From IMG/VR virus record IMGVR_UViG_2875703104_000002: a DNA stretch of 37,887 nt; one strand, given 5' to 3'. Origin of the DNA: a virus (lineage: Duplodnaviria > Heunggongvirae > Uroviricota > Caudoviricetes). Positions 1 through 36,948 of the stretch are shown one piece after another. The notes under the pieces are model-generated. The model was not told where the DNA came from. It did no database searches and worked only from the letters and a program-made list of their open reading frames with translations. Each line of letters starts with the position of its first letter. Positions within the stretch are counted from its first letter, which is position 1. Position numbers and translations under genes: made by a program.

Positions 1-498
1 ATGACAGGAAGTCAGGTCATTGATGCTGAAGAGGACAGGCATAAACTGGTTGTAGAGTACAAGGATGCTCTGCAACCTGCCGATTTTTATCACAATTTCA
101 AACAACGGGGTATCCGCTCCGTACAGCTTATTCCCCATCTTGAATTTGATGACCGGGGCGATCTGACGGCCGCTTCGGTGACAGCAGAGCTGTGGGGGAA
201 ATTTTTAATTGCCCTGTTCGAGTGTTGGGTACGGGCAGATATCAGTCGTATTTCGATTGAGCTTTTTGACGCCACCCTACAAAAATGGTGTGGCAGCGAA
301 AACCCGCAACCGCGTCGTGGCTGCCAGGCGTGCGACTGGCATCGCCTGTGCCCGCACGCTCGGGAGGAGACGCCAGACAACGTGCTTTGTGCGGGCTATC
401 AGGCGTTTTATTCTTACTCCGCGCCGCATATGCGGGTGATGCGTGATCTGATAAAGCAGCATCGTTCTCCCATGGAGCTGATGACGATGCTGCGGTGA
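1..498 (+). CDS. yidF: Host radical-SAM/SPASM-type maturase-like protein (YidF-like); ORF begins at window position 1 so the true start may lie upstream
   Basis: 165-aa ORF with Cys-rich C-terminal cluster (CQACDWHRLCPH...C) typical of anaerobic sulfatase-maturase SPASM domains; convergent with emrD as in E. coli K-12 (from memory, not searched). Confidence 0.5.
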   Translation: MTGSQVIDAEEDRHKLVVEYKDALQPADFYHNFKQRGIRSVQLIPHLEFDDRGDLTAASVTAELWGKFLIALFECWVRADISRISIELFDATLQKWCGSENPQPRRGCQACDWHRLCPHAREETPDNVLCAGYQAFYSYSAPHMRVMRDLIKQHRSPMELMTMLR

Positions 499-505
499 CG
501 TGAGC

Positions 506-1696
506 TTAAACAGGCTGCCCCTGATGCGACATCCGCGTCGCCAGCGGTAGCCAGCACAGCACGATCAACAATCCCATTAAGGTCATCAACAATCCCAGGC
601 TGCCCTGACCGGTTTGCGGCAACATCGCAGAGAGCGACGCCAGCACGCCGGAACCAATGTTTTGCAGACCGCCGACCAGCGCGCCAGCGGTGCCCGCCAG
701 GAAGGGGAACGGCTCCATCGCGCCGCTGGTAGCCAGTGGAAACAGCATCCCGGCACCGAAAAAGAACAGCGCGGCGGGAATGAGCAGCGTCCAGACATTC
801 ATCACGCCAAACCAGTCGGGGATCCACATCAGCAAGCCAGCCAGCAGGCAACAGATAACCGACTGCCACATCAACGTTGAGAAGCGCTTATTGGGACGTC
901 CGGCAAACCATGCGCCAAAAAATGCCGCCGGAATCGGCAGAATAAACAAAATACTGACCGTCATACTGCTCAGCCCTAACACCGCGCCCATCAGCACGCC
1001 GGAGCAGGCTTCAAATGCGGCAATCCCGGCCAGACCGCCAATCAGCATCAGCAAATAACAGTTAAAACCGCTGTTACCGAAAAGCGTTTTATAACTGGTA
1101 AGCAGGCGCGTGCGCGGTGCGTCGACCGGACGCGTTTCCGGCATCCAGCGGGCCATACTGAAAGTCACACCGGCACAAAGAACCAACAAAAAGAGATAAC
1201 AGGCACGCCAGTTCCACATCGTATCCAGCAGACCGCCGATTAGCGGTGCGAGCAGCGGACTGACAAGAATCCCCATGTTTAACAGGCTGTTAGCGTGGCG
1301 CAACTGTGTCCGTTCATATAAATCGCGCGGCAAAGTACGCGCCATTACGCCGCCAACGCCGGTGCCCATCCCCTGCATCGCGCTGGCGGCAATCAATACC
1401 ATCAAACTGGAGGTCGTGACCGCGACCAGCGTTGCCAGCATAAAAATGGACATTCCGACGAGGATCACCGGTCGGCGACCCACGCGGTCGGAAATCGGGC
1501 CATAAAACAGCTGTGAGACACCGTAAGTCAGCAGATAAGCGCCCATTACGCTCTGCACCGCCCCTTCACGGACATTGAGATCGCGCGCCATATCGGCAAT
1601 AGCTGGAATATAAATGGTTTGCGCCATCTGACCGACGGCCACGAGTAATACCAACATCAATAACAAATTGACGTTTCTATGCCTTTTCATTATCAC
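506..1696 (-). CDS. emrD: MFS multidrug efflux transporter EmrD
   Basis: 396-aa ORF, highly hydrophobic with multiple predicted TM helices; sequence recognised as E. coli EmrD (N-terminus MKRHRNVNLLLMLVLLVAVGQMAQTIYIPAIADMARDL). Confidence 0.9.
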   Translation of the reverse strand: MIMKRHRNVNLLLMLVLLVAVGQMAQTIYIPAIADMARDLNVREGAVQSVMGAYLLTYGVSQLFYGPISDRVGRRPVILVGMSIFMLATLVAVTTSSLMVLIAASAMQGMGTGVGGVMARTLPRDLYERTQLRHANSLLNMGILVSPLLAPLIGGLLDTMWNWRACYLFLLVLCAGVTFSMARWMPETRPVDAPRTRLLTSYKTLFGNSGFNCYLLMLIGGLAGIAAFEACSGVLMGAVLGLSSMTVSILFILPIPAAFFGAWFAGRPNKRFSTLMWQSVICCLLAGLLMWIPDWFGVMNVWTLLIPAALFFFGAGMLFPLATSGAMEPFPFLAGTAGALVGGLQNIGSGVLASLSAMLPQTGQGSLGLLMTLMGLLIVLCWLPLATRMSHQGQPV

Positions 1697-1856
1697 GGAT
1701 GCTTTTATAAAAATAATTAGAATAAGTCACTACGCATTCCCATAAATGCGGGAGAGGAATCTATCACATTGATGAATGTTAGCCAGATATACGCCAGGAA
1801 TGGGGAATTGTTTAGCGGCAGAATATGTAAACAAAAGCGGCAATAAATGTTGCCGG

Positions 1857-1906
1857 TGAAGCGGCGCACGAAAAACGCGAAAGCGTTTCACGATAAATGC
1901 GAAAAC
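1857..1906. mobile_element. attR: Mu right-end (attR) terminus with MuA-binding sites R1/R2; terminal dinucleotide 5'-TG at 1857-1858
   Basis: Sequence TGAAGCGGCGCACGAAAAACGCGAAAGCGTTTCACGATAAATGCGAAAAC matches the 50-bp Mu R-end used in MuA in vitro transposition (from memory); host DNA immediately to the left. Confidence 0.85.
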
Positions 1907-1933
1907 TTTAGCTTTCGCGCTTCAAATGAAACA

Positions 1934-1955
1934 GCAGTATTAATTACTGCTTTTT
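1934..1955. terminator. Hairpin (GCAGTA-ttaat-TACTGC) followed by T5, overlapping the mom stop codon; possible bidirectional terminator
   Basis: 6-bp inverted repeat with 5-nt loop at 1934..1950 followed by TTTTT on plus strand and preceded by an A-run (U-run on minus strand). Confidence 0.3.
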
Positions 1956-2697
1956 ATTCATTACATGGGGATCGCTTAGGGTATGGCTGAACCTTGAATA
2001 GTTTGGTATTTAGCCGCTTCCTTGCTCGCTTGTTCAGGAATCTGATGTAGCGATACTGATTAAATTTGTGCACCACGGCACGCTCTTTATTAGCCCGTAA
2101 ATACACGCCTCGTTGTCCACCTCGCTTAATCGCGTTCATCGTTATCTCGTGATACCACTCACCATCCAGCTCGTAGAATGTACTTTCATGACTGCCAATA
2201 AAATCAAAATTCGACGCCTGATACACAACGCCTGCGCGTCCGCAGCGTTCGTCTGCAAAGGACTGAACCCACTCCACTGACGGATACAGTAACCTGATGG
2301 TTTTCAGTGCATAACTGATGACCCGTGATTCAGAGTTGCGGGGCATGTCATCGTGTAGCCACATGCGGTTCAACTCCATATAGCCCCGGTTATCCGTTTC
2401 AAGCACGACACGACGACCTGAGTTGGGGTTAAGGGCATATCCCCACTGGAGAACGCCAACCAGATCGCGTCCGCTGAATACTCCCAGGTGGAGGTAAGAG
2501 TTATTCACAAAACGGCGGGAATAGTGCTTTGTCTGAATAATTGTGCGGGCCAGCCAACAGGATATGGTTTCAACGCGCAGCTCCTTTGAACCATAGCCAA
2601 CAATCTGGCCTTCATACTCAATAACGCACGGTTTCGTCAGAATGCGTGATTTCTTCTCTTTTCCCACAATGTTTCTCCGTGGGATGCTCGCAGGCAT
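1954..2697 (-). CDS. mom: Mom DNA-modification (anti-restriction adenine modification) protein; true start may be downstream of the ORF-track start, near the com stop
   Basis: 247-aa ORF as last gene before the R-end, overlapping the 3' end of the com zinc-finger ORF, preceded by a GATC-cluster regulatory region; matches Mu com-mom architecture. Confidence 0.8.
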
Positions 2698-2806
2698 TCA
2701 GCATTATGATGTGACGTTTGCAACGCGGACACCTGATTTCAATGTGAACAAAGGAATCCGCCTTAAATAACAGTTTGTTGCAGTTTTTACAGCGAATTGA
2801 TTTCAT
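2618..2806 (-). CDS. com: Com, zinc-finger translational activator of mom
   Basis: 62-aa ORF with CxxC...CxxC zinc finger (CKNCNK...CPRCKRH); strong SD AGGAGG 5 nt upstream of ATG; overlaps mom. Confidence 0.8.
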
Positions 2807-2930
2807 CTCACCTCCTTTGCATCAATTCGCCACTATCTTAAAAAACATCATGAGTTGAGTGTGGTTATTGGGGCATAATCGATCTGTATTACCGATCGAT
2901 TCAATTGATTCGATCGTCGTTTTCTATATG
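2807..2930 (-). promoter_or_regulatory. mom/com late promoter region with three clustered Dam GATC sites (2881, 2894, 2912)
   Basis: Three GATC within 35 bp, 75-110 bp upstream of the com start; known Mu Pmom architecture (Dam methylation blocks OxyR; C activates). Confidence 0.6.
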
Positions 2931-3062
2931 TGTTCGCTACGGCTGGGTATCATTTCCGACGAGAATAAACAAAAATTAACCGAGTGGATGCTCTATGCGC
3001 AGAAGGTCGAATATACAGACACCTCCAGCCTGCCAGTAACGTTTCCCGAACAACCAGAATGA
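2931..3062 (+). pseudogene. 3' remnant of an alternative tail-fibre assembly gene (U'-like), convergent with U; N-terminal part missing
   Basis: Plus-strand ORF ends ...LTEWMLYAQKVEYTDTSSLPVTFPEQPE, resembling the conserved C-terminal motif of tail-fibre assembly proteins (compare U C-terminus ...[26 protein letters not shown]); only about 44 codons of homology, upstream part runs into the mom GATC region. Confidence 0.5.
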
Positions 3063-3090
3063 GAGAAGGCCCGGTATCGGGGCTTAATTT

Positions 3091-3618
3091 TTACTCTGGT
3101 TTTTGTGGCCATTCTGGCTTTGCTGTATCCACACGGCTGACCAGAACGCTGTAGCGTTCCCAGGCTTCCAGTCGTGTGCGCTCCTCATCCGTCGCCATAT
3201 TCAGCCTGACAGCGCGTTCCAGCTGCTGGATGACTGATTCAGCTTCGGAAAGCAATGCGGCCTTTTGTAATTCGGCCTGCTGTTGCTGCTCGTCTGCCGT
3301 ATAAATCCGTTTAACCACAGCTCCGTCCTTAAACAGCCACTTTCCTGAATCGTCGGCGCGACGATTGGCGGTGATATCGGGAACTTCGACAACGCTGTAG
3401 CCTGTAGGGTCCAGTGTTGAAGCGTCTCTGGTTACGGCCACAATAATATTGTTCTCGTCGTAAAGAATTTTTATTGTGTCCGGCTGAAAGTTCTTCACTT
3501 CCTCATACCAGTTTTTTCCGTCTTCTGACCACAGCCAGGCAACATTAAAATTTTTTGTTAGCTGATATTGCTCAACGGTTTTTGGATTGCCGGCGACAAT
3601 GTTTTTTAAATGCTGCAT
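3091..3618 (-). CDS. Tail fibre assembly protein (U-like, Tfa family)
   Basis: 175-aa ORF directly downstream of the tail fibre gene; C-terminal Tfa motif W-x-x-Y-x-x-L-x-x-VDT-x-x-PEWP. Confidence 0.8.
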
Positions 3619-3621
3619 AAA

Positions 3622-6266
3622 TTACACCTGTGACACGTTGTACCACGTTCCGTTAATTAACTTTTGTATTGGTCTGAATACTGCCGGATCGTCGCCATCA
3701 ACTTCGCCGACAATGCCAAGCCCGGTAATTACATGGCCTGATTTCTCATACATCACGCCTTTTTGCATGGTCTGAACAACACGTGTGCCAAGTCGGACAT
3801 CCCTCACGTATCGGCCATCAAAATTGCCGTAATCCGAGGGGTTAACGCGCCCCGTAATATTTACGGTTTTATTACTCTGAATGCTGCCGGAAACAAAGCG
3901 CATAACATGGACGTTATTAGCATAAACATCCAGATTACCATCACCATTTTGTTTAAAGCCCGTGTCATTATCACCCAAAACAATCGAATTACCGCCAAGA
4001 GCACTGGATGTTCCTATACCCAGAGCACCATTCAATTGACCACCAGATAACGGCAGTGCACCGACATCTCCCGCTGTAGGTTTTCGCGTTGTGGTATAAA
4101 ACTCAGACCAGTCAGCCTCGAATCCGTAACCGTCACGAGCAGAACGATAAAAAATACCACCGTTCTTATAATTAACGCGAAACTGGGCGGCGGGACAACT
4201 TCCTTCACCGATATTAAAATGAAGAATTAACGTTGATGCCCCACCAATATTTGCGTTATAGGCTCCGCTACTCCAGTTCCATCCAACGGCTTTATCATTC
4301 GCAACGGTGTCTCCTGTTTTTCCTGAAGCAAATGCACCAATATTTTTCGGCGTCAGGTTAATATCTGATGTTCCATCAAACGAAACGTTATTAATTTTAT
4401 TCCTGAAGCAAATGCACCAATATTTTTCGGCGTCAGGTTAATATCTGATGTTCCATCAAACGAAACGTTATTAATTTTACGGGCTGTTTTCAGCTTTGTT
4501 GCTGTCGCCGCATTGCCGGACAGTTCACCAGAAAGGCCAGCACTGAATGCCTGTTTCGCGCCCCATGTCTGGGCTTCGTCAATGATTGGTACTCGTCTTG
4601 TTGTGATCGTGCGGCTTCCCGGATTTCCTGAAATGCGCACCATAAAAAAGCGGTAGTTGGCTTTACTTACAGTGCTGCGCCATACATGCATTGAGCGCCC
4701 CGTACCGGAATCATCACTCGGACCAACTGCGATGTTTATCAGGTTGCCATCAATGACGCCCCAGTCCATACCGTCGGGAATATTGGTCATATTATCCAGC
4801 CGAACGGTTATCAGACTGCCCGGCACAAAATCGTAGGTCTGCCAGTCCAGACTGGATAGTTTTGCCACTGCGCCACCGATGCCCAGATTCAGGGGAAGTG
4901 AATAAGATGTGTAAACTTCCCGCCATTCGCTCCATGAGCTGCCGGTAAAAACGCGCTCAAACGTGCGACCTTTAAGGGTTGTACCTGTTCCGGCAGTTGT
5001 ATAACGCTGCCATACGTTAACACCATCAAAGCGCCTCAACACTTCCAGAATACCGAGGACTGTCACGCCGTTTCCGTCCAGTATTGGACCGTTGGTTGCT
5101 TTACCTGTAACGCTGTAAATACCTGGTGAAGTCACATCATTCAAATCCCCGTCGTAATAACGACTCTCTGACTGATGACCGACTCTTAACCACGGTTCCC
5201 ACTGTGGGTTCTCTGCATTCCATGTAGCAGAAAGGCAGCGAACATATACGTTCCCACGGCGGGTCGTATAGCGTTGCGTGCGTGAGTACCCACCACCCTC
5301 AAGAACTTCAAGGAGTCCCTGACCATAACTTCCTTCTTCCGGATAGTTGCGGTCAAATGAAGCGATAGAGCCACTACTGTTTCGCCATAAACCAAGATGC
5401 TCTGCGCCTCCTAGCGTGTTCAGGTCAATAGCTGTGCTCAGGGGGCGTGTTGCAGACTGAATCTGACGCCAGTAGCTCCACGGACCGTCTGAGCCATTCC
5501 AGGTGCCAGAAAGATTACGCATATAAACATTGCCAGTTCTGGTGGTATAACGCTGCATTCCGGAAAAATTACCGCCATTGAAGACCTCAAGAACACCGAC
5601 TGCACCGTCTTCAGGGAAATTTTTCTCCAGTGTTGCGTTGGAGGATGTGGATTTATACCAGACACCCACATAAGCCTTAACTGGACCAAATGTATTGATA
5701 TCAGCATCAACCGGCATTTCGCCGTTGTTTTTCATAAACGTCAGGCTGGTAACGCCAACATTGTCCAGAAAAGCTGATTTATCCTGGATATCTGCACCAT
5801 TCTGATTTTTCGCCAGACGTGAATTTGCGTTGTCATTTGCTGCCTTGACCGCTTTTGGCGTTGCGGCGAGTGCTTCGGATGTGCTGTTGGTAGCACTACT
5901 TAGCTGAACCAGCCCCTTTTTGCTCACGCTGGCATCATAAATACCCAGATTTTCACGTGCTGTGCGCTGTGCTGATGCCCCGGCAGTTTTTATTTCGCTG
6001 AGGTTATTTTTTATCAGCAGCGCGTTCTTGTTCATGATGGCTTTAATGGACAGTGCAAGCTGGTTTAATTTTGTTTTATCCGGTTGAATACCGGCTTCTT
6101 CCAGCGTGTTTAATAACTCCGCCTGCACAATATTAAACCAGTCCATGCCGGGCCATGTGATAACATTATTCCCGTCACCTTCTGAAAACCAGCGAACGAT
6201 AGCACTACGCTGGGCGGATACGGGCGGCATGACGGTTACGCCGCTGTCGTTATCAATATAAAACAT
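3622..6266 (-). pseudogene. Tail fibre protein (S-like), frameshifted by an 80-bp tandem duplication: 637-aa N-terminal ORF 4353..6266 plus out-of-frame C-terminal continuation 3622..4320
   Basis: Hand translation shows minus-strand frame continuous from 4398 to 3622 with no stop; ORF1 and that frame encode the same peptide KINNVSFDGTSDINLTPKNIGAFASG across the two repeat copies; removing one copy fuses them into about 854 codons. Confidence 0.8.
4320..4479. repeat. Perfect 80-bp tandem direct duplication (copies 4320..4399 and 4400..4479) inside the tail fibre gene
   Basis: Both copies read TTCCTGAAGCAAATGCACCAATATTTTTCGGCGTCAGGTTAATATCTGATGTTCCATCAAACGAAACGTTATTAATTTTA; 80 is not a multiple of 3. 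Confidence 0.97.
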
Positions 6267-6808
6267 TAGTTATCTCCGTCATGGTAAACAAATTTATAAA
6301 TCTGATGCGCGGGTTTATATTTCTCCAGTAAACATTCCAGCGCACCCGATTCATAAACACGTAACGGCGTCAGAACATTATCCAGCACCGTTGCGTTGCG
6401 ATAATTTTTAATACCGTAAATATTGACCTGCGTAACCCACTGGCCTTCTGTGGAATCCGTCAGCCTGACGGTAAAACCGTACTGCGCAGCCAGCCATTCA
6501 TAAAAGCGCCGACTCAGATTGCCGGTCATACGCATTTTATTCGCGGCAGCCCGCTGGCGTTCGGACAGGGTGCCGTTTTCGCTTGTACAGTCCGGCAACC
6601 CCAGAAATGATTCCCACTCCCCCAGATACCAGCGGGATGTGGACGGGAAACGCTCCCGCAGCATTTGCCGCGCATCATCCGCCGCAGTGGCAATCACGTC
6701 GCTGATGGCCTGCGCCAGCGCAGATAATTTGCTGTCGGGGCTTTTATTCCAGGCAAGCCCTGACGGCAGTAATTGCAGAAAGGCCGTCTGATAGGGTGTT
6801 ACAGCCAT
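6266..6808 (-). CDS. Baseplate/tail protein (Mu gp48-like)
   Basis: 180-aa ORF immediately upstream of the tail fibre gene with overlapping stop/start; position and size match Mu gp48. Confidence 0.65.
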   Translation of the reverse strand: MAVTPYQTAFLQLLPSGLAWNKSPDSKLSALAQAISDVIATAADDARQMLRERFPSTSRWYLGEWESFLGLPDCTSENGTLSERQRAAANKMRMTGNLSRRFYEWLAAQYGFTVRLTDSTEGQWVTQVNIYGIKNYRNATVLDNVLTPLRVYESGALECLLEKYKPAHQIYKFVYHDGDN

Positions 6809-7881
6809 TCAATTGTCCCCGGTGTTAACAGTTCCGTATTCTCCGAACGCTGGATCTCTGTCGGGAAACGCACTTCAAAATCATCCAGACCGGTAACACC
6901 TGCCACCGCACGGATAATACGGGAGGGGGCAAGTGCGCCGCCCGGCGTCACCTCATTAAAAAACATGGTATTAATGGCGTGGGTAATAGCCTGTTTCAGT
7001 TCGGCTGTCTTCGGTGATATATAAATCCGTGGATTTACCGGCTTTGCCTTTGGCGCAAATACCGTGACATTTACACCGTCAGGCTGCCCGACAATCAGGC
7101 CGGTTATCGGGTCAGTATGACCGGCGATATAATCCGCCACACGTTCCACGTCTGCCGGTTGTGGAAAAATATTGCTCCGGTTATCCATAACAAACGTCAC
7201 CCCGACTGTGCCACCGCCTTTCCATGTCGGAAAACACCAGGCACGGGTAACGCCGCTGACTTCACGCGCCCAGCGGACGTAATCAAACTGATTACCGCCG
7301 AACGGAGGATACTGGACACGATATTCCAGCCGTGACAGCAGCTCCGCTGCACTCTCAATATCAGCCCCACCGGAAAACCCTTTTACAGTGATGGCATCGG
7401 AAACAACACAGGCAACCGGGGTGATCAACGTTAAAAGGGTATTCTCACCGGTATTTCCTGCCTCACCGGCAGCCAGTGCGGTAACGGTAATTTCCGTCGT
7501 TCCTGCACGGTCAATCACAATGGCATCAGCCAGGCTGTAAACCACACCATCAGCACGCTGCCAGCGTGTACCGGCAGGAATGGTGGTCGCTGCCGATGTG
7601 GTGACAGTCAGCGGGCCGCTGGCGGCTGTCGCCTGTTTGCGGCGCACGCCCCAGAACCGGCAGTGCTCCAGCAACTCATCTTCATCTGCTGTCGACGGGA
7701 TAATCTGCCGTCCAACCCATGAAATATGCTCGTGACAACCGGCAGCAAGGCCCGCCTGAGCATAAGCAATGGCACTCAGCGTTTTTTCACGGGCCTGAGG
7801 CCAGCTACCCGGCAGGCGCTGTTCAATATTCTGTTCTGTACGGGCAATCAGCGATGATAATGTCGGTGGTGAATAAGCCAT
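6799..7881 (-). CDS. Baseplate J-like protein (Mu gp47-like)
   Basis: 360-aa ORF in the baseplate block; size and position match Mu gp47. Confidence 0.7.
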   Translation of the reverse strand: MAYSPPTLSSLIARTEQNIEQRLPGSWPQAREKTLSAIAYAQAGLAAGCHEHISWVGRQIIPSTADEDELLEHCRFWGVRRKQATAASGPLTVTTSAATTIPAGTRWQRADGVVYSLADAIVIDRAGTTEITVTALAAGEAGNTGENTLLTLITPVACVVSDAITVKGFSGGADIESAAELLSRLEYRVQYPPFGGNQFDYVRWAREVSGVTRAWCFPTWKGGGTVGVTFVMDNRSNIFPQPADVERVADYIAGHTDPITGLIVGQPDGVNVTVFAPKAKPVNPRIYISPKTAELKQAITHAINTMFFNEVTPGGALAPSRIIRAVAGVTGLDDFEVRFPTEIQRSENTELLTPGTIEWL

Positions 7882-8319
7882 TTAAACCCCGTTAAATGCT
7901 GCTTTAAACTCATAAGGAATAACGGAACCATCCGGTAATGTCAGTGCAATGTAGAGGTATAACCAGCCCTGATGTAACTGTTCCGCTCTGACGTTAATCG
8001 CACTTACCCGGCCCGCTGTTTTCAGCCATTCCAGCGCCTCTTCGGCATACCCTCTGGCGCGTTCCAGCGTATCCGGTGTGGCTTTTTCACGTGATAACAG
8101 CCACAACCGCGAACCGATGGGGCGGTCGCGGTAACTGTCCCCCCACCATCCACGGCGATCATCTGAACCATCCGGCAGCGTGTCAGAATCCAGCGCGCGC
8201 CGGTCGGTAAACAGGGAGATTGTCACATCGGTTGTCAGGCTGTCGTCGGTCAGCATATCAATGCCATCCTGTGCAATATCGCCGCGTCCGTTCGTCCAGA
8301 TAATGGCTAAATCGGTCAT
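7882..8319 (-). CDS. Baseplate wedge protein (Mu gp46-like)
   Basis: 145-aa ORF, translationally coupled within the baseplate block. Confidence 0.65.
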   Translation of the reverse strand: MTDLAIIWTNGRGDIAQDGIDMLTDDSLTTDVTISLFTDRRALDSDTLPDGSDDRRGWWGDSYRDRPIGSRLWLLSREKATPDTLERARGYAEEALEWLKTAGRVSAINVRAEQLHQGWLYLYIALTLPDGSVIPYEFKAAFNGV

Positions 8320-11520: not shown

Positions 11521-14007
11521 TTACCAACCTGTAATGTAGTTATCGCCCGCGTAAATATTCAGCCCCATACCATCCTCGGTGACGCGGGAACTGGTCAGAC
11601 GTAACCCCTCGCCGAGTTCGACGCGCAACGAGGCTTCCGCATTGACTTTTTGTTCCTGCGGTTCCTTATCCGTGGCCGTCCATTTCTGATACAGGTCGGT
11701 TACAAAACCGCCCAGATACTCCCCGGCGACACTGCCCAGCGTGGCACCGGCAACCGTACCCAGCGGTCCGGCAAGGCTGCCAACGGCACCGCCGAGCCAT
11801 GCACCGGCTGTACTGCCAATTGCGCCTGCTTTTTCATGGGTTGACGCCTGTTCATCCATCAGGACGGGGGCAAGCTGGAGTGCCCCCATTACCGGGCCAC
11901 CCAGACGTGACAGGGCACGACCGGCACCTTTCCCCATCCAGCCCAGCGCCCCGGCACCTTTTGTCACAACCCGACCGATCGCACTGCCTGCAAGTTTGTT
12001 TCCGATACCGGAAAACCACCCGCCAACGGCACGCCCGGCATCAGCCAGCTTTCCGACCGTTCCCGTAACCAGTTGCCCGGCAGCACTGCCTGCAAGCCTG
12101 CTCAGAAGACCGGATTTACCGGGCAAAGGCTGTGGCGCAGGGCGTGGTATTACCGGCACGCCCGGAGATGGCACGGGCTGCCTGTTTCCGGCACCGGAAA
12201 GCAGTCTGCTGACAGTACGCCCGGCATCCGCCAGCGTTCCTGCCGCTCCCGTAACCTGCTGCGCGGCAGCGCTGCCTGCCAGCTTGCCCGGAAGACCGGA
12301 TTTAGCGGGCAAAGGGCGTGGCGCGGGGCGTGGTATTACCGGCACGCCCGGAGATGGCGCGGGCTGCCTGTTTCCGGCACCGGAAAGCAGTCTGCTGACA
12401 GTACGCCCGGCATGCGCCAGCGTTCCTGCCGCTCCCGTCACCTGCTGCATGGCAGCGCTGCCTGCAAGCCTGCCCGGAAGACCGGATTTACCGGGTAAAG
12501 GTCGTGGCGCGGGGCGTGCTGCTGCCGGAACGCTGGGTGGGGGTAATGGTGCAGGCCGTGCTGTTACCGGTACGCCGGGTGGGGGTAATGCCAGTACAGG
12601 GCGTGGTGCAGGTAATGCCAGCGGCTGTGGCCCGGACAGCAATAACGGCTGGCGGGGTAACAGCGTGGGCATTCTTCCGCCGCTCCGTACGCGACGACCG
12701 CCGCCACTCCCGTAGCCACCAAATCCACGGGGCCAGTTGATGACAAACACACGCTGAATGCCGATACCCTGCAACAGCGTCTCAGACGTCATGGCATCCG
12801 GGACCGGCAGGCCTGCCTGCCCACGTTTGCGGTTTCGCATCCAGCGCCACATACGACGCCCGGTTTTAAACGGATAACTGGCAACCTGCCATGAGGGTTT
12901 TGCCACGGCCCAGCCTGCTCTCAGGGCTTTATTGGCAAGCCAGACAGACACCAGAACAGCAGCCAGTTTTTTCAGGCTGACAATATTCTGGTCAACCCAT
13001 GCCAGCGCATCTTTACCCGGTTTCAGCCAGCGCCATAATTCCTGCGCCGCGATTTTTACCGTTCTGAACGTGGTCAGAAATTTCTGACCAATGTTTTCTG
13101 CCAGTGCGTCAAGTTCCCCGGATTTATCCGCCATGTCGTGCCAGTTAAGCACCCGGCGCATCTCGTTCTTGATTTCTTCAAAGGGGCCGCTGTTTGCCAC
13201 CTTTATGCGAAATTCAAGCAGGTTGGCTTCCATCTGTGCGAACATCCCGTCCCAGGAGTTCATCGCACTGGCTTGTGCACCTTTTGACTGTTCTGACAGC
13301 GTTCTGAATACCGTCAGAATGGATTTCATGCCCAGCTTGCCCTTTGTACCCAGATCACGGATTTTTTTAACGTCCGTTCCCGTTGCATCCGCCAGCGCCT
13401 GATAAACATTGATACCGTAACCGGTCAGCAGGTTGGCATCCGCCGCCGTGATTTGCTGGCGGGCAAACATCTGTTTCAGTTGCAGTGAGGCACCCTGTGC
13501 AGTGGGTAAATCCCAGCCGTGCATGGCCCCCTGATCCTGCAACATGGTGATGAACTGTTTCGTCTGTTCATCCGTCATGCCGAAGCCTTTCGACGAACGG
13601 ATCTCATCCAGAACACCACTCAGCCCCCACGTGGTGTCCTTCGCGTTCTGCTTCGCCCAGGCCATCATAGCCTGCGCTCTGACCTTATCGCCGTGATACA
13701 GCGAGTTCATAGCGATGATCTGCTGCTCACGCTGGGCGGCTGCACCAATAAACAGTTTATTGGCGGTGTAACCCACGCCAGCGATACCCAGCGCCCCGGC
13801 TGACAGCATTCGGAATGTACGGGTTGACAGAGAACCCATTCTGTCAATTGCACCAGAAACGCGCACAACCTCCATACGCAGGGCTCGCAGGGAACTCTGC
13901 CCACTACGGGACAGGGCGTTTATCTGGCTCGAATACTGGCGGGAACGCCGGGAAAGATTGCCATTAAGATCAATAATGACAGACGCCTTTAAGCGTTTCC
14001 CGGTCAT
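11521..14007 (-). CDS. Tail tape measure protein
   Basis: 828-aa ORF between tail chaperone and baseplate genes; Gly/Ala-rich C-terminal region, Pro-rich linker and internal 62-aa tandem repeats. Confidence 0.85.
11959..12516. repeat. Three tandem 186-bp (62-codon) repeats inside the tape measure gene (12331..12516, 12145..12330, degenerate 11959..12144)
   Basis: Near-identical DNA units starting TGGTATTACCGGCACGCCCGGAGATGG at 12145 and 12331; encoded units RPAPRPLP(G/A)KSGLPG(R/K)LAGSAA...PSPGVPVIP. Confidence 0.85.
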
Positions 14008-22102: not shown

Positions 22103-23585
22103 GGGTCAGCATGTCGATAAGTTCTGCATCATCCATCTGCGGATATAATGAAGCGGCTTTGTTCATGGCGGCTTCCGGGCCATCTTTCAGCACAGAAAAA
22201 ATGACGGGTTTCAGCAGGGGATCAACCGAACGCTGCCAGTCTTCCGGTGAGACGCCCATCCGGTCGATATCATCCTCCTGCGGGATATCTTCAGCGGATA
22301 ATGCAGCCTCTTTCTGCGGACCGTTATCCATGACGACCGGTTGAGCAGTAAACACGGCTTCATCACCGACCGGCTGCGGAATATGGAGTTTTTCCTGTAT
22401 CCAGGAGACGGGAATACGCATTCCCGCCGCCAGTTTCGGAATGGCGTCAGACAGTGCCGTAATATCACCCGCTTCGCTGGTATCAAATACAATGCCCGGC
22501 AGGCGGTTAATATCAATGGTGCTGTCACTGTTCAGTGCCAGCAGGGGATAAATCAGGTCACGGTTAATACTGCGGGCAAGCTGGCCCACATCCGCGTTAC
22601 GGATTTCCCGGCGAACCTCATCATGCACTTCACCCAGCGACCGTGCACCTTTATCGCCAGCCTCTGTGGTCAGGGTGCCGCCCAGAATGGCTTTTGAAAT
22701 CGCTTTTTCTGCCCAGCCAATCATCGCCATAAAGGGGTCTGACTGACCATCTGCAGCGCTCTGAAAATCCAGCGTCATCCCCATCGGAATAATGCCACCG
22801 GCACGTCGCCCGATATCCATCACAGCCTGCATCAGCGTGGCTTTCTCACGGTTCGTGGAGCCGGTCGGATATTTACCGACGCGCATGGGAAGTCCGTAAA
22901 TTTCCAGGAACTCTGCAAAATCACGCACGGAATAGTTTTTAAAAATAAAAGGCCAGATAAGCGTGCGCACAAGGCCATTGGTGCCGACATATCCGGTGCG
23001 GGATTTGGCCCGGTGCATAAACCAGCCGAACGGTTGCAGCTCCAGCCCGTGATAAGACGCATCACGCAGGCGTAATTCGTTCAGATTGTCGGGGTTCGCG
23101 CAGAACAGCGCCGGATCGCGATGATGCAGCGCCACCGGCACGCGCATTTTCCCCAGCCACCCCCATTCAATCTCCTGCATGGAATAGCCCTTGAGAATGG
23201 CATCACCGGCATCAAACAGGGCATCTTCAAACCACGCCGCATCATGCAGATATTCATTCAGCATGTCGGCGTCTTTTTTCTCCTGTGCGCTGGCATCACG
23301 TGCCGGAGCGATGCGCCATTCCAGCGCCTGAATGGCAAGGCGGCGCTTGCTCAGTTCGGAAAAAAGGTGGGTGTCCTTTTCTTCCATATCAAAGGCCAGG
23401 TCAGCCTGTGCGGTCAAATCACCGCGTTCGGCATCACGCAGCATCTGCGCGGCCCGGTTCGGCGTCACACCACTGGAAGGATGCTCCTGCGTGCGCTTCA
23501 TGACCATTGCCAGCTCATCGCTGCGGGTCTGCATTTCATCGTCAAAATCAAACGGCTGCCCGGAAATATCCAGAATACGGCCCAT
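22047..23585 (-). CDS. Portal protein (Mu H/gp29-like)
   Basis: 512-aa ORF directly downstream of large terminase with overlapping stop/start. Confidence 0.8.
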   Translation of the reverse strand: MGRILDISGQPFDFDDEMQTRSDELAMVMKRTQEHPSSGVTPNRAAQMLRDAERGDLTAQADLAFDMEEKDTHLFSELSKRRLAIQALEWRIAPARDASAQEKKDADMLNEYLHDAAWFEDALFDAGDAILKGYSMQEIEWGWLGKMRVPVALHHRDPALFCANPDNLNELRLRDASYHGLELQPFGWFMHRAKSRTGYVGTNGLVRTLIWPFIFKNYSVRDFAEFLEIYGLPMRVGKYPTGSTNREKATLMQAVMDIGRRAGGIIPMGMTLDFQSAADGQSDPFMAMIGWAEKAISKAILGGTLTTEAGDKGARSLGEVHDEVRREIRNADVGQLARSINRDLIYPLLALNSDSTIDINRLPGIVFDTSEAGDITALSDAIPKLAAGMRIPVSWIQEKLHIPQPVGDEAVFTAQPVVMDNGPQKEAALSAEDIPQEDDIDRMGVSPEDWQRSVDPLLKPVIFSVLKDGPEAAMNKAASLYPQMDDAELIDMLTRAIFVADIWGRLDAAADH

Positions 23586-25306
23586 TACCAGCCCCCTCGT
23601 TCAAACTGGTGATAATCATCAAAATCATCGTTATCAACATCATCACCACGGTGGCGTGGTGGCAGCGCCTGTATGCTGTCCTCGTCGATAACAAAACCAT
23701 TCATATAAGACGCCCTGACAGCCATACAGAGCGCCACGGCAAAGTCGCCATGTCGTCGGCCTTTACCGCCTTCATCTTTTGTGCGCCCCTTATCAATCTG
23801 CGGAATACCTTTGTCCACCTTGATGTGGAGCAGGTCATCAAGTGTGGTCTGGTGCCGGGCAATCGTGATGTTCTGCGCTTCAAACTCGCCTTTCAGTTTC
23901 GGCATCCACTCCTGATACCAGGATGCGGTCAGATTCACACAGTCGATCATCTCCGGGCCATAAATCAGACGGGCGGCTTCTGCCAGATAACCGCCGTTAC
24001 CGGTGGCATCAAATGCAGCGCCGGTAAAACGGGGCAAACGGGACAGAATGAATAAAAGGATTTGTCGCTGCTGGTCATAGGTCACATTACGCAGCTCCAC
24101 GCGGAAACATTCGCGTTTGCGTAAGTCAGGAGTGATGGCAAGCGGAACAAACACCGTAAGGTCACCACGGCGTGCAAAGTCTTCGCCCAGTACGTGTTTA
24201 TTGAGCGGCGACAGCGCATCGAGCAACGGGAGCAGCTCCTGTTCACACCAGTCCTGAACGATGCCGTGGCGCATTTGTGGTGTCAGCGATTCAAAATCGT
24301 CCGGGGCTTCAAAACGCAGAATCGGGATATCCCGCGCTGGCGTCATGGCGGCTTCAATCAGCACGCGTGACAGATAAGCGCCCCCGGATTTTTTAGGAAT
24401 GCAGCCGTATTCCTCGTCGGCACTCTCTTTATTCGGCGCATTCCGGTACAGGCCATCACGCCAGGCTTTTTCCGCTTCCGGCGACCACGGCTGATTCGTG
24501 ACGTAACAGATACGTCGGTACAACCCGTCAGCGATGGCATCATCCAGCGTGATGCGGTGAACGCTGTAATCCTTGCGCCCCTCGCGCGCATCCTGAATGT
24601 ACTGGTTAAACAGGTTATCGACGCCGTTATGTGTCGATATGATCCGCACGCGGGCACCCCACATGGTGAGAGCAAAAGCCGCTTTCAGCAGTTCGTCCAG
24701 GGCTTCATGAAATGCCGCCTCATCAATCACCACGTCCCCCTGCAAACCACGCAGGTTAGACGGACGGCTTGACAGCGCCTGCACCTTAAATCCGCTGTTA
24801 GGGAAACGGATCATATAAGTGAGGATTTCTTCTTTTTTGTCGCTGTCCCAGAAGGTCTGCTCCCATACGTCAGCCTTTGCCAGTTGGTTAAAGGCGCGGG
24901 CAAACAGGGCACAGGCGGCAATGTATTCCAGCGCCATTTCCTGACGGGAACCCACATAAAAAACGTTGCGACCGCCACGGCGACGCGGCTTTGCTGCCGT
25001 CATGACATTGCGGCCCGCTTCGGCCCATGTCAGACCGGTACGACGGGATTTTTCAGCAATACAAATCTGGCTTTCATCCTCAAACCAGCGGCGCTGATAG
25101 CCCAGAAAAACCGGTTCATTAGATGGCTGGGCGTTAGTGATGTCTGTAACGATCTCGACACCAAGTTTGGTTGCTTCTTCCTGAAGATCAATCTGACGGG
25201 GTTCACTTGACGGAATCAGTTTTTTGCCCCGGCTATTTTTTTCATACCCCATTATTTTTTCAGCCATAATACTTCGGTTTTCTTTAAATACCTGAGGGAA
25301 CGTCAT
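23585..25306 (-). CDS. Terminase large subunit (Mu gp28-like); alternative start at 25267 (MAEKIMGYE...)
   Basis: 573-aa ORF at the head of the structural block; acidic C-terminus; the ATG at 25304..25306 shares two bases with the plus-strand ATG at 25305..25307. Confidence 0.85.
   Translation of the reverse strand: MTFPQVFKENRSIMAEKIMGYEKNSRGKKLIPSSEPRQIDLQEEATKLGVEIVTDITNAQPSNEPVFLGYQRRWFEDESQICIAEKSRRTGLTWAEAGRNVMTAAKPRRRGGRNVFYVGSRQEMALEYIAACALFARAFNQLAKADVWEQTFWDSDKKEEILTYMIRFPNSGFKVQALSSRPSNLRGLQGDVVIDEAAFHEALDELLKAAFALTMWGARVRIISTHNGVDNLFNQYIQDAREGRKDYSVHRITLDDAIADGLYRRICYVTNQPWSPEAEKAWRDGLYRNAPNKESADEEYGCIPKKSGGAYLSRVLIEAAMTPARDIPILRFEAPDDFESLTPQMRHGIVQDWCEQELLPLLDALSPLNKHVLGEDFARRGDLTVFVPLAITPDLRKRECFRVELRNVTYDQQRQILLFILSRLPRFTGAAFDATGNGGYLAEAARLIYGPEMIDCVNLTASWYQEWMPKLKGEFEAQNITIARHQTTLDDLLHIKVDKGIPQIDKGRTKDEGGKGRRHGDFAVALCMAVRASYMNGFVIDEDSIQALPPRHRGDDVDNDDFDDYHQFERGGW
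25241..25270 (+). promoter_or_regulatory. Putative sigma70-like promoter for the plus-strand gene (-35 TTCATA 25241..25246, -10 CATAAT 25265..25270)
   Basis: Hexamers with 18-bp spacing read by eye about 35 bp upstream of ATG; lies within the 5' end of the terminase ORF on the opposite strand. Confidence 0.3.
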
Positions 25307-25793
25307 GTCACCAAAAGCAATAAAACTACTTGAAATATTTTGTGAAACAGAATTAAAGCAATCTATGGATACTGTTCAATTTGTCTCAATAAACGGATGG
25401 GAAACACTTCAGCGCCTTTGGCCCCTGAATGAACGATTCACACCACGCATAGAGCAAATCAGAACGATTAGCTACAGAAAGCAATTTGAAAAAGCCGCAG
25501 ATAACGCCATTGAGGATTTTCTGATGAAGGATGATGACTGGTCAGAAATTCCATTAGTTGTCTGGCGTGTTCTTCTGGAACGCCATAATCAAGCAACGAT
25601 TCTCTGCGTAACTAATGCACTCGCCAATAACACCGAACTTATGCACATCCCTGTCGGACTTTCTCAGTCGGCACAAACAAAATTTGCAGTAGCTTATTTG
25701 TATTACGCAATGAAGCTCCCATATAAAGTGCTCGGTGAATCACAGCTTGACATTGAATCACCGTTTGAGTATCTGAACACCCGGCTACAGTAA
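25305..25793 (+). CDS. Hypothetical protein (162 aa), reverse-oriented accessory gene between terminase subunit genes; function unknown
   Basis: Only plus-strand ORF in a non-coding gap of the minus-strand late operon; SD GAGGGA 6 nt upstream of ATG; strongly AT-rich (first 60 nt about 27% GC); followed by hairpin terminator; no TM segments or catalytic motifs recognised. Confidence 0.75.
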   Translation: MSPKAIKLLEIFCETELKQSMDTVQFVSINGWETLQRLWPLNERFTPRIEQIRTISYRKQFEKAADNAIEDFLMKDDDWSEIPLVVWRVLLERHNQATILCVTNALANNTELMHIPVGLSQSAQTKFAVAYLYYAMKLPYKVLGESQLDIESPFEYLNTRLQ

Positions 25794-25852: not shown

Positions 25853-26443
25853 CTACGCTTTACCCAGCAACACATCACGGATACGCTGCTCCAGTTCTTC
25901 GCTGATACCATCCTGCCCGCGCAGTTCTTCACTGACGGCGTTTGCCGCTTCTTCTGCGAATGCCTGGCGGATTTCTTTCTCGCGCCGGTGGCTGGACATT
26001 GCCGTGGATTCCAGACGCTGTGCCGCCAGCATGGCATTTTTCAGCAGGTCAATATCCACGTCAGATTCCGGGTTTTCGATTTGCCGCATCATGGCCTTAA
26101 AAAGCTGGCTGCGGGCCATTTCCAGAATCAGCTTTGTGGTTTCTCCCATTGGCTTGTCGCCAAGTTCTGCGGTCAGTGCTGACGTCATTTCACGCATCTG
26201 TCGCAGGTTATGGCCTACCTGTTCGACGTTCGTCGCGTAACGGTTCAGACCGGAACGGGAGAGTTTCATCTCATCCGGCAGGCCAGCGTCTTCAATCAGT
26301 GCGTTAATTTCTTCCAGAATGCGGGCCTGTGGGATCGCTTTATCACGCAGCATTTCATGCAGCGTTTTACGTACGTTTTCTGGCAGTAAATCCACTTTTG
26401 AAGCCCGGCCCCGTGTTTTCCTGTCCATCACGCCTCCTGTCAT
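25853..26443 (-). CDS. Terminase small subunit-like DNA-binding protein (Mu gp27-like)
   Basis: 196-aa ORF immediately upstream (in transcription order) of the large terminase region. Confidence 0.65.
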   Translation of the reverse strand: MTGGVMDRKTRGRASKVDLLPENVRKTLHEMLRDKAIPQARILEEINALIEDAGLPDEMKLSRSGLNRYATNVEQVGHNLRQMREMTSALTAELGDKPMGETTKLILEMARSQLFKAMMRQIENPESDVDIDLLKNAMLAAQRLESTAMSSHRREKEIRQAFAEEAANAVSEELRGQDGISEELEQRIRDVLLGKA

Positions 26444-28337: not shown

Positions 28338-28364
28338 AAATAACCGGCAGGATGCCGGTTATTT
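28338..28364 (-). terminator. Hairpin (AAATAACCGGCA-tcc-TGCCGGTTATTT) at the 3' end of the C gene
   Basis: Perfect 12-bp inverted repeat with 3-nt loop overlapping the C stop codon; stem ends in UUAUUU. Confidence 0.5.
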
Positions 28365-28781
28365 CTGGCTTTCAGGTGAGAACAGATCAGGCTGATGACG
28401 TCGTGTATGCAGCTTTCTCTGGCGGGCAATAATCTGGTAGATCTGCGGCTGGGACAGGCGATACTGGCGACGCAGTTCTTCCATGTTACGACCATTGAAC
28501 TGGCAGTAAAGCAAATCGTCGCGTAACGCGGTCAGGATCGTATCGCCGCAGGGGATGTAAAACTGCCGTCCGCCCAGAAAACAGGACAGGGCAACGGCCT
28601 GTTTACGGGCAAGCTCACGGGGATTGCTGACGTTCTGGCGTTTCAGTTCGTTTTCCAGAACATCAATCAGATCAACCACCGAACGGGGCCAGCGTGATTC
28701 CAGTTCCGGGGCCGGAATGTTATCAATATGTCCGATTAACTGGCGAATTGCCGGATCGTGTTCAAATAAATCATGCTGCAT
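28359..28781 (-). CDS. C: Late transcription activator C
   Basis: 140-aa ORF with C-terminal HTH-like region, paralogous to the Mor-like ORF (shared motifs such as FNGRN...EL...Y and QxYIP); position upstream of lys. Confidence 0.85.
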   Translation of the reverse strand: MQHDLFEHDPAIRQLIGHIDNIPAPELESRWPRSVVDLIDVLENELKRQNVSNPRELARKQAVALSCFLGGRQFYIPCGDTILTALRDDLLYCQFNGRNMEELRRQYRLSQPQIYQIIARQRKLHTRRHQPDLFSPESQK

Positions 28782-33506: not shown

Positions 33507-33761
33507 TTATTGATTCTGAATAACTGCGCTGGCTTTTACCTTCGCGCCTTTTACCTGCTTAAAGAAAACCGCGCTGCACCACGGACAACATGCAAAGGAG
33601 TCCCATACTTCATTTTCTGGTGAGCATTGCGTCATAATTTGCTCTTTGCATTTGGGGCAATTAAATGCAGTCAGAGCCACATTGTTATTCTGTACCCGTT
33701 TAACCCATTCAATATATTTTTCAGCTTTAGTACACATCGTTATCTCCAGATAATCTGGCAA
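33507..33761 (-). CDS. Zinc-ribbon early protein (84 aa)
   Basis: CPKCKEQ...CCPWCSAVF motif. Confidence 0.5.
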
Positions 33762-33967
33762 CCATTAAGACGGGCCGTCCATACAGAACGGGCCACCCCG
33801 GACTTATGCTCCATAATTCTGACCGCGTTTTTTACCAGTTCCACCGGTGGGTAAGTGATTTCAAGAATCGGACGCGCCACGCCGAGATATGATTCATTTA
33901 CATGACTCCCGCGCGCCTGTAACCAGTTCTGCGCATCCGTTGCCATTTTTATGTTTCGGGCTATCAT
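33740..33967 (-). CDS. kil: Kil-like protein (host killing/cell division inhibitor)
   Basis: 75-aa ORF immediately downstream of B, the position of Mu kil. Confidence 0.5.
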
Positions 33968-33982
33968 AATTTCTTCTCCTTC

Positions 33983-34921
33983 TTAATTACGCAGCAGCGT
34001 TGAAATATCAACGTCCAGGTCTAATTCACGGAAAGCCTGACGCAGATAATCTTCGTTAACACGCTCACCTTTACCGTGAGCCGTCATGGCGGCAAGGCGA
34101 AGTGAATGATTCAGAATGCGAAGCGCACCTGGTTTCTGCGCAATCTGCTGTAATAACTCCAGTTCATTTTCGCCGTTAATCTGCCAGGCATCCGCAATAG
34201 CTTTTACATCGGCTTTTTTGGTTTTATTAATTGCAGTGCGCTTTGCAATACGGGAAAACAGACGGGCAAATTCAACCGTTCTGTTACCCCCCGTCATATT
34301 TGAATAAACCCGGTGATTTCCCATCAGCACAAGGCCAGTGCGGGTTGATTCCTGTAACAGGCGGAGTTCTTCCAGAACTTCGGCACCAAGATGATCAGCT
34401 TCGTCGATGATAACCAGCCCCTGTGTACCTTCAAGGCGACGTCGCAGGGCGCGGGAGAGCGGCCCTTTACGGCGTGGTGCGTCATTCATTCCCAGCTCAA
34501 ACGCCAGTTCAGTAAGACATTCCAGAACGCTGGCACAGGATGGCGTAATGGTGATCATCCAGACATTGTTATTGGTGCGGCGATATTCACGGGCCGCTTC
34601 GGTTTTGCCCACACCAGGATTGCCACATACAACAGCAATACTTTCAGTCAGGCTGGCAAAACGCATACTTGTCCAGATTTGTTTTACCGTCTGCGTTTCC
34701 ACAAAGCGGGGCGGTTCAGGTAGTTCTGCAACTGCATGATATTTTTCCAGCCAGCGTTGCAGAATTTGTGAAACACGCTCGTTATCCCCGTTGTACTTAT
34801 CATTGATAAAACTACTGATAGTTCCGGTAGAAAGTCCGCTCTCAAGAGCAATTTGTTTAAAGGTGGTTTCTTCATTTTCTACAAGCGTGCGCAGTCCTGC
34901 GCGAATATCGGAAATATTCAT
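33983..34921 (-). CDS. B: Transposition target-DNA activator MuB (AAA+ ATPase)
   Basis: 312-aa ORF with Walker A GNPGVGKT and N-terminal HTH; directly downstream of the transposase. Confidence 0.9.
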   Translation of the reverse strand: MNISDIRAGLRTLVENEETTFKQIALESGLSTGTISSFINDKYNGDNERVSQILQRWLEKYHAVAELPEPPRFVETQTVKQIWTSMRFASLTESIAVVCGNPGVGKTEAAREYRRTNNNVWMITITPSCASVLECLTELAFELGMNDAPRRKGPLSRALRRRLEGTQGLVIIDEADHLGAEVLEELRLLQESTRTGLVLMGNHRVYSNMTGGNRTVEFARLFSRIAKRTAINKTKKADVKAIADAWQINGENELELLQQIAQKPGALRILNHSLRLAAMTAHGKGERVNEDYLRQAFRELDLDVDISTLLRN

Positions 34922-34959
34922 CTGAATAACCTCGTAATTAAATTTTGTTTAAACGTTAA

Positions 34960-36948
34960 TTAAATGGCTTTTTTACGTCTGTTCTGTTCCAGAATATCCA
35001 GCGAATGATTCAGATATTCATCACGCTCAGTTTCGTATTCATCATCACGCTCCTGATTCTTCACCCGTTCCATATTACCGGAAGGCCGGAAAATGCCGAC
35101 AATTCGTGATTCTGGTGCTTCAGGTTCGGCTATCTGCGGCAGCAGCTCTGCCACTTCCAGTGCATCCATTTGTTTCTGTGCCTTAATCGCTGCTTTCGTC
35201 GCAGATTTCAGTTGTTTCTGGCGGCGACGATATTCACGGCCTGCCGCAGCATCATTAAACGCAACAGGTGCCAGACATTCCGCTTCACAGATAAACCGAC
35301 CGTCCAGGGTGTAGCAATAAACCGTGCTGTGTAACTGCTGTGGATCAAATCTGACCACAACTTTTTTCACTCCGGCATTCATTAACGCCATGTTGTAATA
35401 AACGTTTTTCGCACCTTTAAGGGAGCCGCCAACTTTAAGCGCGAACTCGCCTTTACGTGAAACGTTCACCGCCTCGGCAGGCAGTAACAGCATCCGTTTT
35501 TGCTCTTCGGTAGGCTTACGCACAATCGTTCTGGCGTATTCACGCTCAAAAACGTCATCAAACGAAAGTTTGCCTCCGCACATTTCTGTTTCACGGCCTG
35601 TTCTGGCATTGAACATCGCCACACCTTCGGCAAGGGTTTTCAGAAACAGCTCTGCATCAACAGCGCGGTCGCCATAGTTATCAGGTTTTGCCTGCGGATT
35701 AGGCCCCGTATATGCGCCAGCCAGTGCCGGATGCTTATCAACGTATTCCTCAAGCCCACCAACACCGAAAGCACGTTCAACAGGTTTTGCCTGGCCCCAG
35801 CCTTTACCAGCAACAACGCTTGTCCAGTGCATTTTCGCCCCCATCAGTAAAAACAGTCCCTTTGGGTCGTCCTCTTTTACCTTAAAGCGGTAGCGATTGG
35901 GCGCGCCTCCCGTCAGCCATTTATTCGCAGCACCACGGGTGTTATCAATGGTGATGTGAAAATCCTCCGGGATACCGTAGCGAGTCACAACATCCATGAA
36001 CGAGAGGCGAATTGAATCAATGTTCTCGCTCACATCGCAGCGCCAGCCCAGAATTTTTCGGGTTTTCACATCCTGCCAGAACCATGTTTTCGGGCGGATC
36101 ACATCACCGTTAAACCAGCGTACAAAGACGTTATGCAGATAACCGTCGCCGTTGATCCACTGCATGGCGTCCAGGTGTTCCACAGTTCGCTGCTGTGCCG
36201 GTATCAGATGCATCAGTGCATGTTCACCTTCACGGCAGGCAACAACCATTGCCTCGTCCAGTTGCTGAATCCGGCGAAAGGCCGTGGCACGGGAGGGAAT
36301 ACTCCAGCCATGCTCGCGGGCTGCCAGTTCCAGACGCTCATAACATTTGCGGAAGGCGGGTTTTTCCGGTCGCAGATAATCTGCAATCAGAAACTGCCAG
36401 GCATCCTCGTCAAATTCACTTTTGTGAACATTGCGACGGGATGCTCCACGTCCATCAACAAGTGCAGCCGCCCAGTCAGGCTTCGCAAGCTTCTGTACCT
36501 GGTAATACTTGTCCCGCAAAGTGGATGCGCTGACCTGGTAATGCCCTGCAACGGTCGCAAAAGCCGTTTTCGTTGAAATCCCCTGGTTCAGCATTTCGTC
36601 TGCAGCCTGAACAGCAGGCAACCATTTTTCAGCAAGTCTGCGCTGGGAATCGCTGGCGTTATCCCATTTGCTCCACAGTGCCTCACGATCATAATCATGG
36701 GCTTCCAGCGTGGGGCGGGCGATTTCAAAATACCCCTGACTTGTTTCAATTCTCCCTTGTTGCAACAGAATTTCAGCACGTAATGCGACAGGGAATGATT
36801 TGATATTGAATTCAAATGATACACCTTTAGTCCCTGCAACCTGCCTGAACTCCCAGCCTTCTCTTTGTGCCTTACGTGTAATGTTAGTGGCTTGCTTTGG
36901 TAAACCTGCCAAACCGAGCAACTCTTTTGCTGTATACCATTCTTTCAT
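34960..36948 (-). CDS. A: DDE transposase MuA
   Basis: 662-aa ORF; N-terminal winged-helix domain ([30 protein letters not shown]) is paralogous to the N-terminus of the adjacent repressor ([30 protein letters not shown]); acidic C-terminal tail. Confidence 0.95.

Follow-up and report, generated by a model that had tools for sequence, protein, structure and literature searches.

A probable Mu-type com-mom operon retained beside a lost inversion system at the right end of an Escherichia coli prophage

The com-mom DNA modification system of coliphage Mu is a textbook one, and the module described here is already known in that form. The target of Com is a short hairpin with a CC(N)2-3GAG motif in its 6-nucleotide loop, located beside the stem that holds the GUG start of mom (PMC6483171). 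In Mom, mutagenesis has identified R111, S124, D149, R151, H58, Y59, W48, Y159 and W181 as essential or important residues (PMC13219725). The literature on Mu mom also describes a distal Fis site at -123 that is dispensable for repression in vitro. In the agn43 and gtr switches, methylation of the GATC sites clustered in the operator blocks OxyR binding (PMC2909390).

The window, by which we mean the whole stretch of 37,887 nucleotides analysed here, begins with host DNA (positions 1..1856, with yidF and emrD) that is 100% identical to many E. coli genomes, and 7.1 kb of the window are identical to GenBank CP035330.1. The prophage that follows is read on the minus strand and has its right end at 1857. 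Its left end lies about 340 bp outside the window, and no Mu left end was found in the window with up to 3 mismatches allowed. Positions 2936..1857 (minus strand) align gap-free with Mu 35638..36717 over 1080 bp at 97.7% DNA identity. A previous reading of the same DNA from its letters alone, hereafter the sequence-only reading, had delimited the module as 1954..2930; this was essentially correct, the Mu homology actually running from 2936 down to the prophage end at 1857. On these sequence data we regard it as very likely that the minus-strand segment 1857..2936 represents the com-mom operon of a Mu-type transposable prophage, located at its right end within the E. coli chromosome, and that the operon most likely works as it does in Mu. 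The earlier identification of a Mu com-mom module under Dam/OxyR, C and Com control was supported at the DNA, protein and RNA-structure levels, and the module appears to belong to the Mu com-mom family by every such criterion examined. The weight of this evidence lies in the sequence identity of the elements, the intact ORFs, the conservation of essential residues, the purifying selection and the presence of the C gene. The operon and its end comprise the following features:

2811..2816, minus strand: com Shine-Dalgarno sequence AGGAGG, 6 nucleotides 5' of the com ATG, matching the ribosome-binding site annotated at Mu 35758..35762.
2806..2618, minus strand: com, an uninterrupted 62-codon ORF for the 62-residue CCCC zinc-finger translational activator of mom.
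2667..1954, minus strand: mom, an uninterrupted ORF starting at GUG, for the tRNA(Gly)-dependent adenine N6 modification enzyme.
1951..1933: a 7-bp hairpin directly after the mom stop codon.
1857..1953, minus strand: mom 3' region and Mu right end (attR), identical to the Mu terminus ending in CGTGCGCCGCTTCA; the last prophage base is 1857.

The hairpin after the mom stop (1933-1951) has a perfect 7-bp stem here and an imperfect one in Mu. The prophage as a whole is a mosaic: its left (immunity) end (36760-37887) resembles D108 and not Mu, some 476 bp of the early region (Mu 7673..8148) are missing at window position 30594/30595, and a stretch of about 186 bp is repeated in the tape-measure gene (12165-12369).

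Mom is 237 residues long when read from GUG 2667 and 247 when read from the upstream in-frame ATG 2697, the start that genome annotators use; its overlap with com is 50 or 80 nucleotides, respectively. The exact protein has already been deposited and named in public databases. It matches the GNAT-fold family Pfam PF25680 of tRNA(Gly)-dependent adenine N6 aminoacyltransferases over profile positions 1-202 of 202 (E=3.4e-75, 252.6 bits with a cut-off of 27.1), PHROG 1384 (E=1.5e-84) and the crystallised Mu Mom, PDB 8BV8 (E=1.5e-157). NCBIfam gave no match for either Com or Mom, though RefSeq annotators name both. Numbered as in the 241-residue Mom of the recent structural paper, a scheme we follow throughout, the protein departs from Mu Mom at two positions, A126V and V133T (229 of 231 residues identical); in addition, CGA stands in place of the Mu stop codon TGA and extends the protein by the six residues RSPCNE. 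Residues Y28, W48, H58, Y59, R111, S124, D149, R151, Y159 and W181 are all conserved, and residues 134-241, which cover the HTH-like insertion (about 175-209) needed for activity, are identical to 8BV8. The module had been described as intact. Frameshifts and loss of catalytic residues in Mom were looked for by alignment to Mu Mom and neither is present, nor do com or mom contain internal stops; therefore Mom appears intact by its reading frame and its essential residues. That much of the description stands, with the lost stop codon and A126V as its caveats.

To place these changes we used an alignment of 64 sequences, consisting of this Mom and 63 diverse homologues retrieved by searching a set of 1.8 billion representative proteins. 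H58, Y59, R111 and Y159 are invariant in it, column 124 always holds S or T, and D149 is found in 63 of the 64. Valine is the second most common residue in column 126, and column 133 is highly variable. The C-terminal tails past K241 range from 0 to 140 residues, those of the D108, Salmonella, Shigella, Cronobacter and E. marmotae Moms being 4-7 residues long. A126V, located two residues after the essential Ser124, occurs in none of the 15 close relatives compared and is lineage-specific. Nonetheless, A126V, V133T and the six-residue tail all fall within the natural variation of the family. The dN/dS of mom is 0.06-0.08 in comparisons with Mu, D108, SfMu and the S6 prophage.

Com had been recognised as a zinc-finger protein with a strong Shine-Dalgarno sequence and a gene overlapping mom, all of which was borne out. 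Aligned to Mu Com it shows two substitutions, D20V and K52E (60 of 62 residues identical), and the zinc-binding cysteines Cys6, Cys9, Cys26 and Cys29 are all conserved. It scores 31.4 bits with Pfam PF10122 (Zn_ribbon_Com, cut-off 22.9) and matches PHROG 13819 (E=3.2e-44), and a PDB search returned no match for it. The exact Com sequence is present on at least 1000 contigs, as one of the common natural alleles.

The segment 2747..2654, which spans the mom start, is identical to Mu. Two predicted RNA elements are located in it:

2684..2697, minus strand: Com target hairpin AUGC-CUGCGA-GCAU with a 6-nucleotide loop, as predicted by folding; 100% identical to Mu.
2663..2683, minus strand: translation inhibition structure with the stem CCCACGG/UUGUGGG, predicted at -9.5 kcal/mol; 100% identical to Mu.

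A CC(N)3GAG motif at 2694..2687 lies across the loop and closing pairs of the hairpin, and the inhibition stem is predicted to sequester part of the mom Shine-Dalgarno sequence (GGAG, 2678..2675) together with the GUG start (2667..2665). Folding of a 41-nucleotide segment gives exactly the two published hairpins, while folding of 96 nucleotides around the mom start gives an alternative pairing with a z-score of only -0.45. The argument from RNA structure rests on the identity to Mu and not on energy, because only the 41-nucleotide fold yields the published hairpins. An Rfam scan of 1700..3300 gave nothing near the gathering score. On this reading the mom start lies at GUG 2667, the Com hairpin at 2697..2684 and the start-hiding stem at 2683..2663, within the region 2600..2700 in which they were to be sought.

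Upstream of com, the control region of mom consists of the following elements, to which the gene of the phage activator is added:

2828..2865, minus strand: core mom promoter, identical to Mu except for C>T at 2853 (about -25).
2856..2885, minus strand: predicted site of binding by the late activator C, spanning about -28 to -57 and containing GATTATGCCCCAATAACC; identical in sequence to Mu.
2881..2915, no strand: three Dam (GATC) sites, a putative methylation-sensitive OxyR operator, assigned by Mu identity.
28359..28781, minus strand: gene of the late activator C, needed in trans by the mom promoter; 98.6% identical to Mu C over 140 residues by tblastn.

The promoter has a poor -35 element (ACCACA, 2865..2860), a 19-bp spacer with a T6 run and a -10 element TAAGAT (2840..2835), and because of these features it would need the phage activator C. 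The C protein encoded in the window belongs to the Pfam Mor family (E=9.5e-34). The footprint coordinates of C (about -28 to -57) and of OxyR are those established for the Mu promoter Pmom. The mom transcription start is placed near 2828 from the -58..+20 fragment (PMC4461284, PMC3378877). Between the deletion junction (2936) and the start of com, four bases depart from the Mu sequence. Three of them, at -105, -103 and -74, are shared with D108, SfMu or S6; the change at -74 (2902, A>G), where D108 and SfMu vary too, turns the gin stop TAA into TGA. The C>T at -25, in the promoter spacer, is lineage-specific among the sequences compared.

As the sequence-only reading had noticed, three GATC sites are found within 35 bp in this region, at 2881-2884, 2894-2897 and 2912-2915. 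They correspond to Mu 35690, 35677 and 35659 and lie about 56, 69 and 87 bp upstream of the mom start. The cluster could have arisen by chance, or have been left behind from the gin coding sequence, and play no part in regulation: the first site is located in the gin remnant described below, and when the 72 sites of the window are placed at random, about 10% of trials contain three sites as close as 35 bp, so that the cluster by itself is weakly unusual, the next tightest triple in the window spanning 155 bp. However, the window is otherwise strongly depleted of GATC (72 sites against 137±11 expected from dinucleotide-preserving shuffles), the positions and flanks of the three sites match those of the Mu operator, which has been characterised experimentally, and recur in D108, SfMu and S6, and three of the four best sites of the window in a scan with the OxyR tetramer consensus fall here, at 2882-2940. 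These consensus matches are modest, with 13 of 20 positions each, and are consistent with OxyR binding rather than proof of it. The weight of the triad comes from its identity to the characterised Mu sites, and we judge a chance cluster or gin leftover without regulatory role to be extremely improbable. E. coli normally has Dam and OxyR; the host is E. coli by the flanking DNA, and dam and oxyR lie outside the window.

If the three sites are the operator that they appear to be, the module would work, by homology with Mu, in the following way. In the prophage state the promoter would be silent, with Fis further excluding RNA polymerase, and OxyR would bind the GATC operator and repress the promoter unless Dam has fully methylated the three sites. 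During late lytic growth, C (28781..28359) would activate the promoter to give a bicistronic com-mom mRNA, on which Com would bind the hairpin 2697..2684 and open the adjacent stem hiding the mom ribosome-binding site and GUG, allowing Mom to be translated. Mom would then move glycine from Gly-tRNA(Gly) to the N6 of adenine in double-stranded DNA, in the SAS context, and the glycyl product would rearrange to N6-carbamoylmethyl-adenine, which may block many restriction enzymes; according to the literature on Mu, the modification would replace about 15-25% of dA. Expression, OxyR binding, Com binding and DNA modification are thus what we infer for this locus from its likeness to Mu.

The region beyond the operator is where the prophage departs from Mu, and two remnants meet there:

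2901..2936, minus strand: gin remnant, the last 36 nucleotides of the gene, ending in HIENDDRIN and the stop codon; it holds the first GATC and aligns to Mu 35638..35673.
2936..3062, plus strand: U' remnant, the last 127 nucleotides of the alternative tail-fibre assembly gene of the G segment; it aligns to Mu 33531..33657.

The sequence between them in Mu, 33658..35637, is missing. It comprises most of U', the alternative fibre end S', the right gix and, save for its last 36 nucleotides, gin, whose CDS is annotated in Mu at 35092..35673. The 34-bp Mu gix repeat was not found with up to 3 mismatches allowed, and no inverted repeats of at least 20 bp were detected in 1857..7200. The site corresponding to the left gix is occupied by unrelated sequence, the left gix being absent because the fibre gene diverges from Mu S just before it, and the tail fibre is of the non-invertible type. 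The loss of the neighbouring inversion system, which had been proposed earlier, is therefore more complete than was claimed, with both gix sites gone. A deletion mediated by Gin was considered and rejected: the breakpoints (Mu 33657/35638) share only about 1 nucleotide of homology and, since they are not at gix, point to an illegitimate deletion and not to a Gin reaction. In E. coli S6 and 1290, where the same junction occurs, the U' remnant carries the annotation of a partial pseudogene. A 67-codon chimeric ORF (2859-3062, plus strand) begins antisense to the mom promoter and ends in the last 42 codons of U'. It runs in the direction of the divergent momP2 promoter of Mu, is probably meaningless, and is followed by a terminator-like hairpin with a T-run (3067-3085, plus strand).

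The junction is located at about -108, 21 bp upstream of the first GATC, so that the deletion removes the distal Fis site (-123) and leaves the rest of the mom control region in place. It also puts com-mom 263 nucleotides downstream of the late tail-fibre/U operon (U stop at 3091, mom start at about 2828). This raises the alternative that com and mom are functional under a changed control, in which late read-through from the fibre and U genes bypasses the Dam/OxyR check. The hairpin between U and the U' remnant (3067-3085) might indeed be a poor barrier to such transcripts, as it has a C-C mismatch and no U-tract, is predicted at -15.8 kcal/mol here compared with -25.4 in S6 and -18.5 in Mu, and scores as a terminator on the opposite strand only. 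This is, however, a purely structural inference, and the conservation of the whole Pmom/OxyR/C region argues for its continued use. Moreover, read-through transcripts would be made late and depend on C as well, which might leave the phenotype unchanged, and translation of mom would still require Com. We therefore hold functional genes with such a bypass to be rather unlikely. The fuller proposal that the deletion rewired mom control by read-through, and that A126V and the six-residue tail might in addition have shifted the activity or specificity of Mom, seems to us unlikely as well. Control of the Mu type from Pmom remains the preferred reading.

The lineage that carries this arrangement has evidently been mobile. 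The exact 247-residue Mom is found on 17 E. coli contigs, and in ten E. coli assemblies the 1244-nucleotide gin-less module is 100% identical and located at ten different chromosomal sites. The gene order in the ten contigs is baseplate, fibre, U, com and mom, with gin absent, and the prophages are at least 99.8% identical over 5 kb (window 1857-6900), while the DNA past the right end differs in each. The insertion sites are near dhaK, aroC, emrD, napA, bcsG, rtcA, pgaA, leuD and rhaB, with one inside a lambdoid prophage, and most of the 5-bp sequences beside the right ends fit the Mu target preference N-Y-S-R-N. An identical module at different insertion sites suggests recent spread by infection or transposition. 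More widely, the com-mom module was found in 105 of 5426 complete E. coli genomes, where most of the best-matching copies adjoin gin. A literature search for gin-less E. coli Mu-type phages found nothing specific.

The copy in the window carries a lesion of its own. An 80-nucleotide tandem duplication (4317-4396 and 4397-4476, the copies about 99% identical) frameshifts the tail-fibre gene (6266..4353, minus strand), leaving a truncated product of 637 residues and an orphan C-terminal ORF (4035..3622, minus strand). Unless the duplication collapses, this prophage copy is probably non-infectious, and in view of the frameshift selection probably does not act on it as an infectious phage. This lesion, together with an A126V private to the lineage among close relatives and the loss of the Mu mom stop codon, would fit a module that is a decaying relic, com-mom surviving in a defective prophage for lack of time and Mom being perhaps impaired. 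Yet the lesion is private to the strain of the window: the nine sister prophages, at nine other sites, have the identical module and an uninterrupted fibre gene of 854 residues. V126 and variable tails are common in the Mom family, com and mom are free of frameshifts and internal stops, and the dN/dS of mom is about 0.06. The recent spread likewise speaks against a dead relic, although it is no proof that mom is in use, since the gene is non-essential in Mu. On balance we consider decay very unlikely, and keep to a module that most likely works as in Mu.

Selection for counter-defence in this lineage, which had been proposed as the reason for the retention of com-mom, is plausible. The low dN/dS (about 0.06) is compatible with it, and no more than compatible, because purifying selection on mom is general to Mu-type phages; a single deletion together with the need for the right end explains the retention equally well. 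The same proposal had been extended to a defence role of a novel gene elsewhere in the prophage, and this part was not sustained, as nothing was found that links com-mom to the ORF at 25305..25793. That ORF, which is probably the gene meant, encodes 162 residues on the plus strand, opposite to all phage genes, and lies in an insertion of about 600 bp that is absent from Mu and separates the small terminase gene (26443..25853) from the large one (25306..23585). It had no match in Pfam, NCBIfam or PHROG, and only a chance-level one in PADLOC (Csx15, E=0.008). What the locus does offer is a recently mobile lineage in which the host-range inversion switch is gone and the anti-restriction operon has been kept with its control elements. 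It also provides natural variants for studies of mom regulation and of the tolerance of the enzyme to change, namely A126V with the six-residue tail, C>T at -25 and the loss of the Fis site at -123.

In comparison with described systems, the com-mom operon of phage Mu (AF083977, 35693..36602) has the same gene order, overlap, GUG start and position at the right end as the one reported here. It also shares the promoter layout, the C site, the three GATC sites, the Com hairpin and the start-hiding stem. The prophage differs from Mu in A126V, V133T and the added RSPCNE of Mom, in D20V and K52E of Com and in the C>T at -25 of the promoter; beyond about -108 the U' remnant replaces gin and the Fis site at -123 is gone. 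The modules of phage D108 (GQ357916) and Shigella phage SfMu (KP010268) are about 97% identical to that of the window. D108 Mom has T133, as here, and a C-terminal tail of four additional residues (SSSD), which indicates that Mom tails are natural. In contrast to the prophage described here, both D108 and SfMu retain gin and the invertible G segment. The gin-less arrangement is shared by the E. coli S6 (CP107134) and 1290 (CP184007) prophages, which have an identical U'/gin junction and the order fibre, U, com, mom without gin, at other chromosomal sites than that of the window. Their mom region is 97.2% identical to that of the window (dS 0.14), and they differ from it in a Mom tail of four additional residues (STPD), in having A126 and in carrying another type of right end. 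Finally, the agn43 and gtr systems resemble mom of Mu in having an OxyR operator with clustered GATC sites. They phase-vary heritably; mom additionally needs C and Com.
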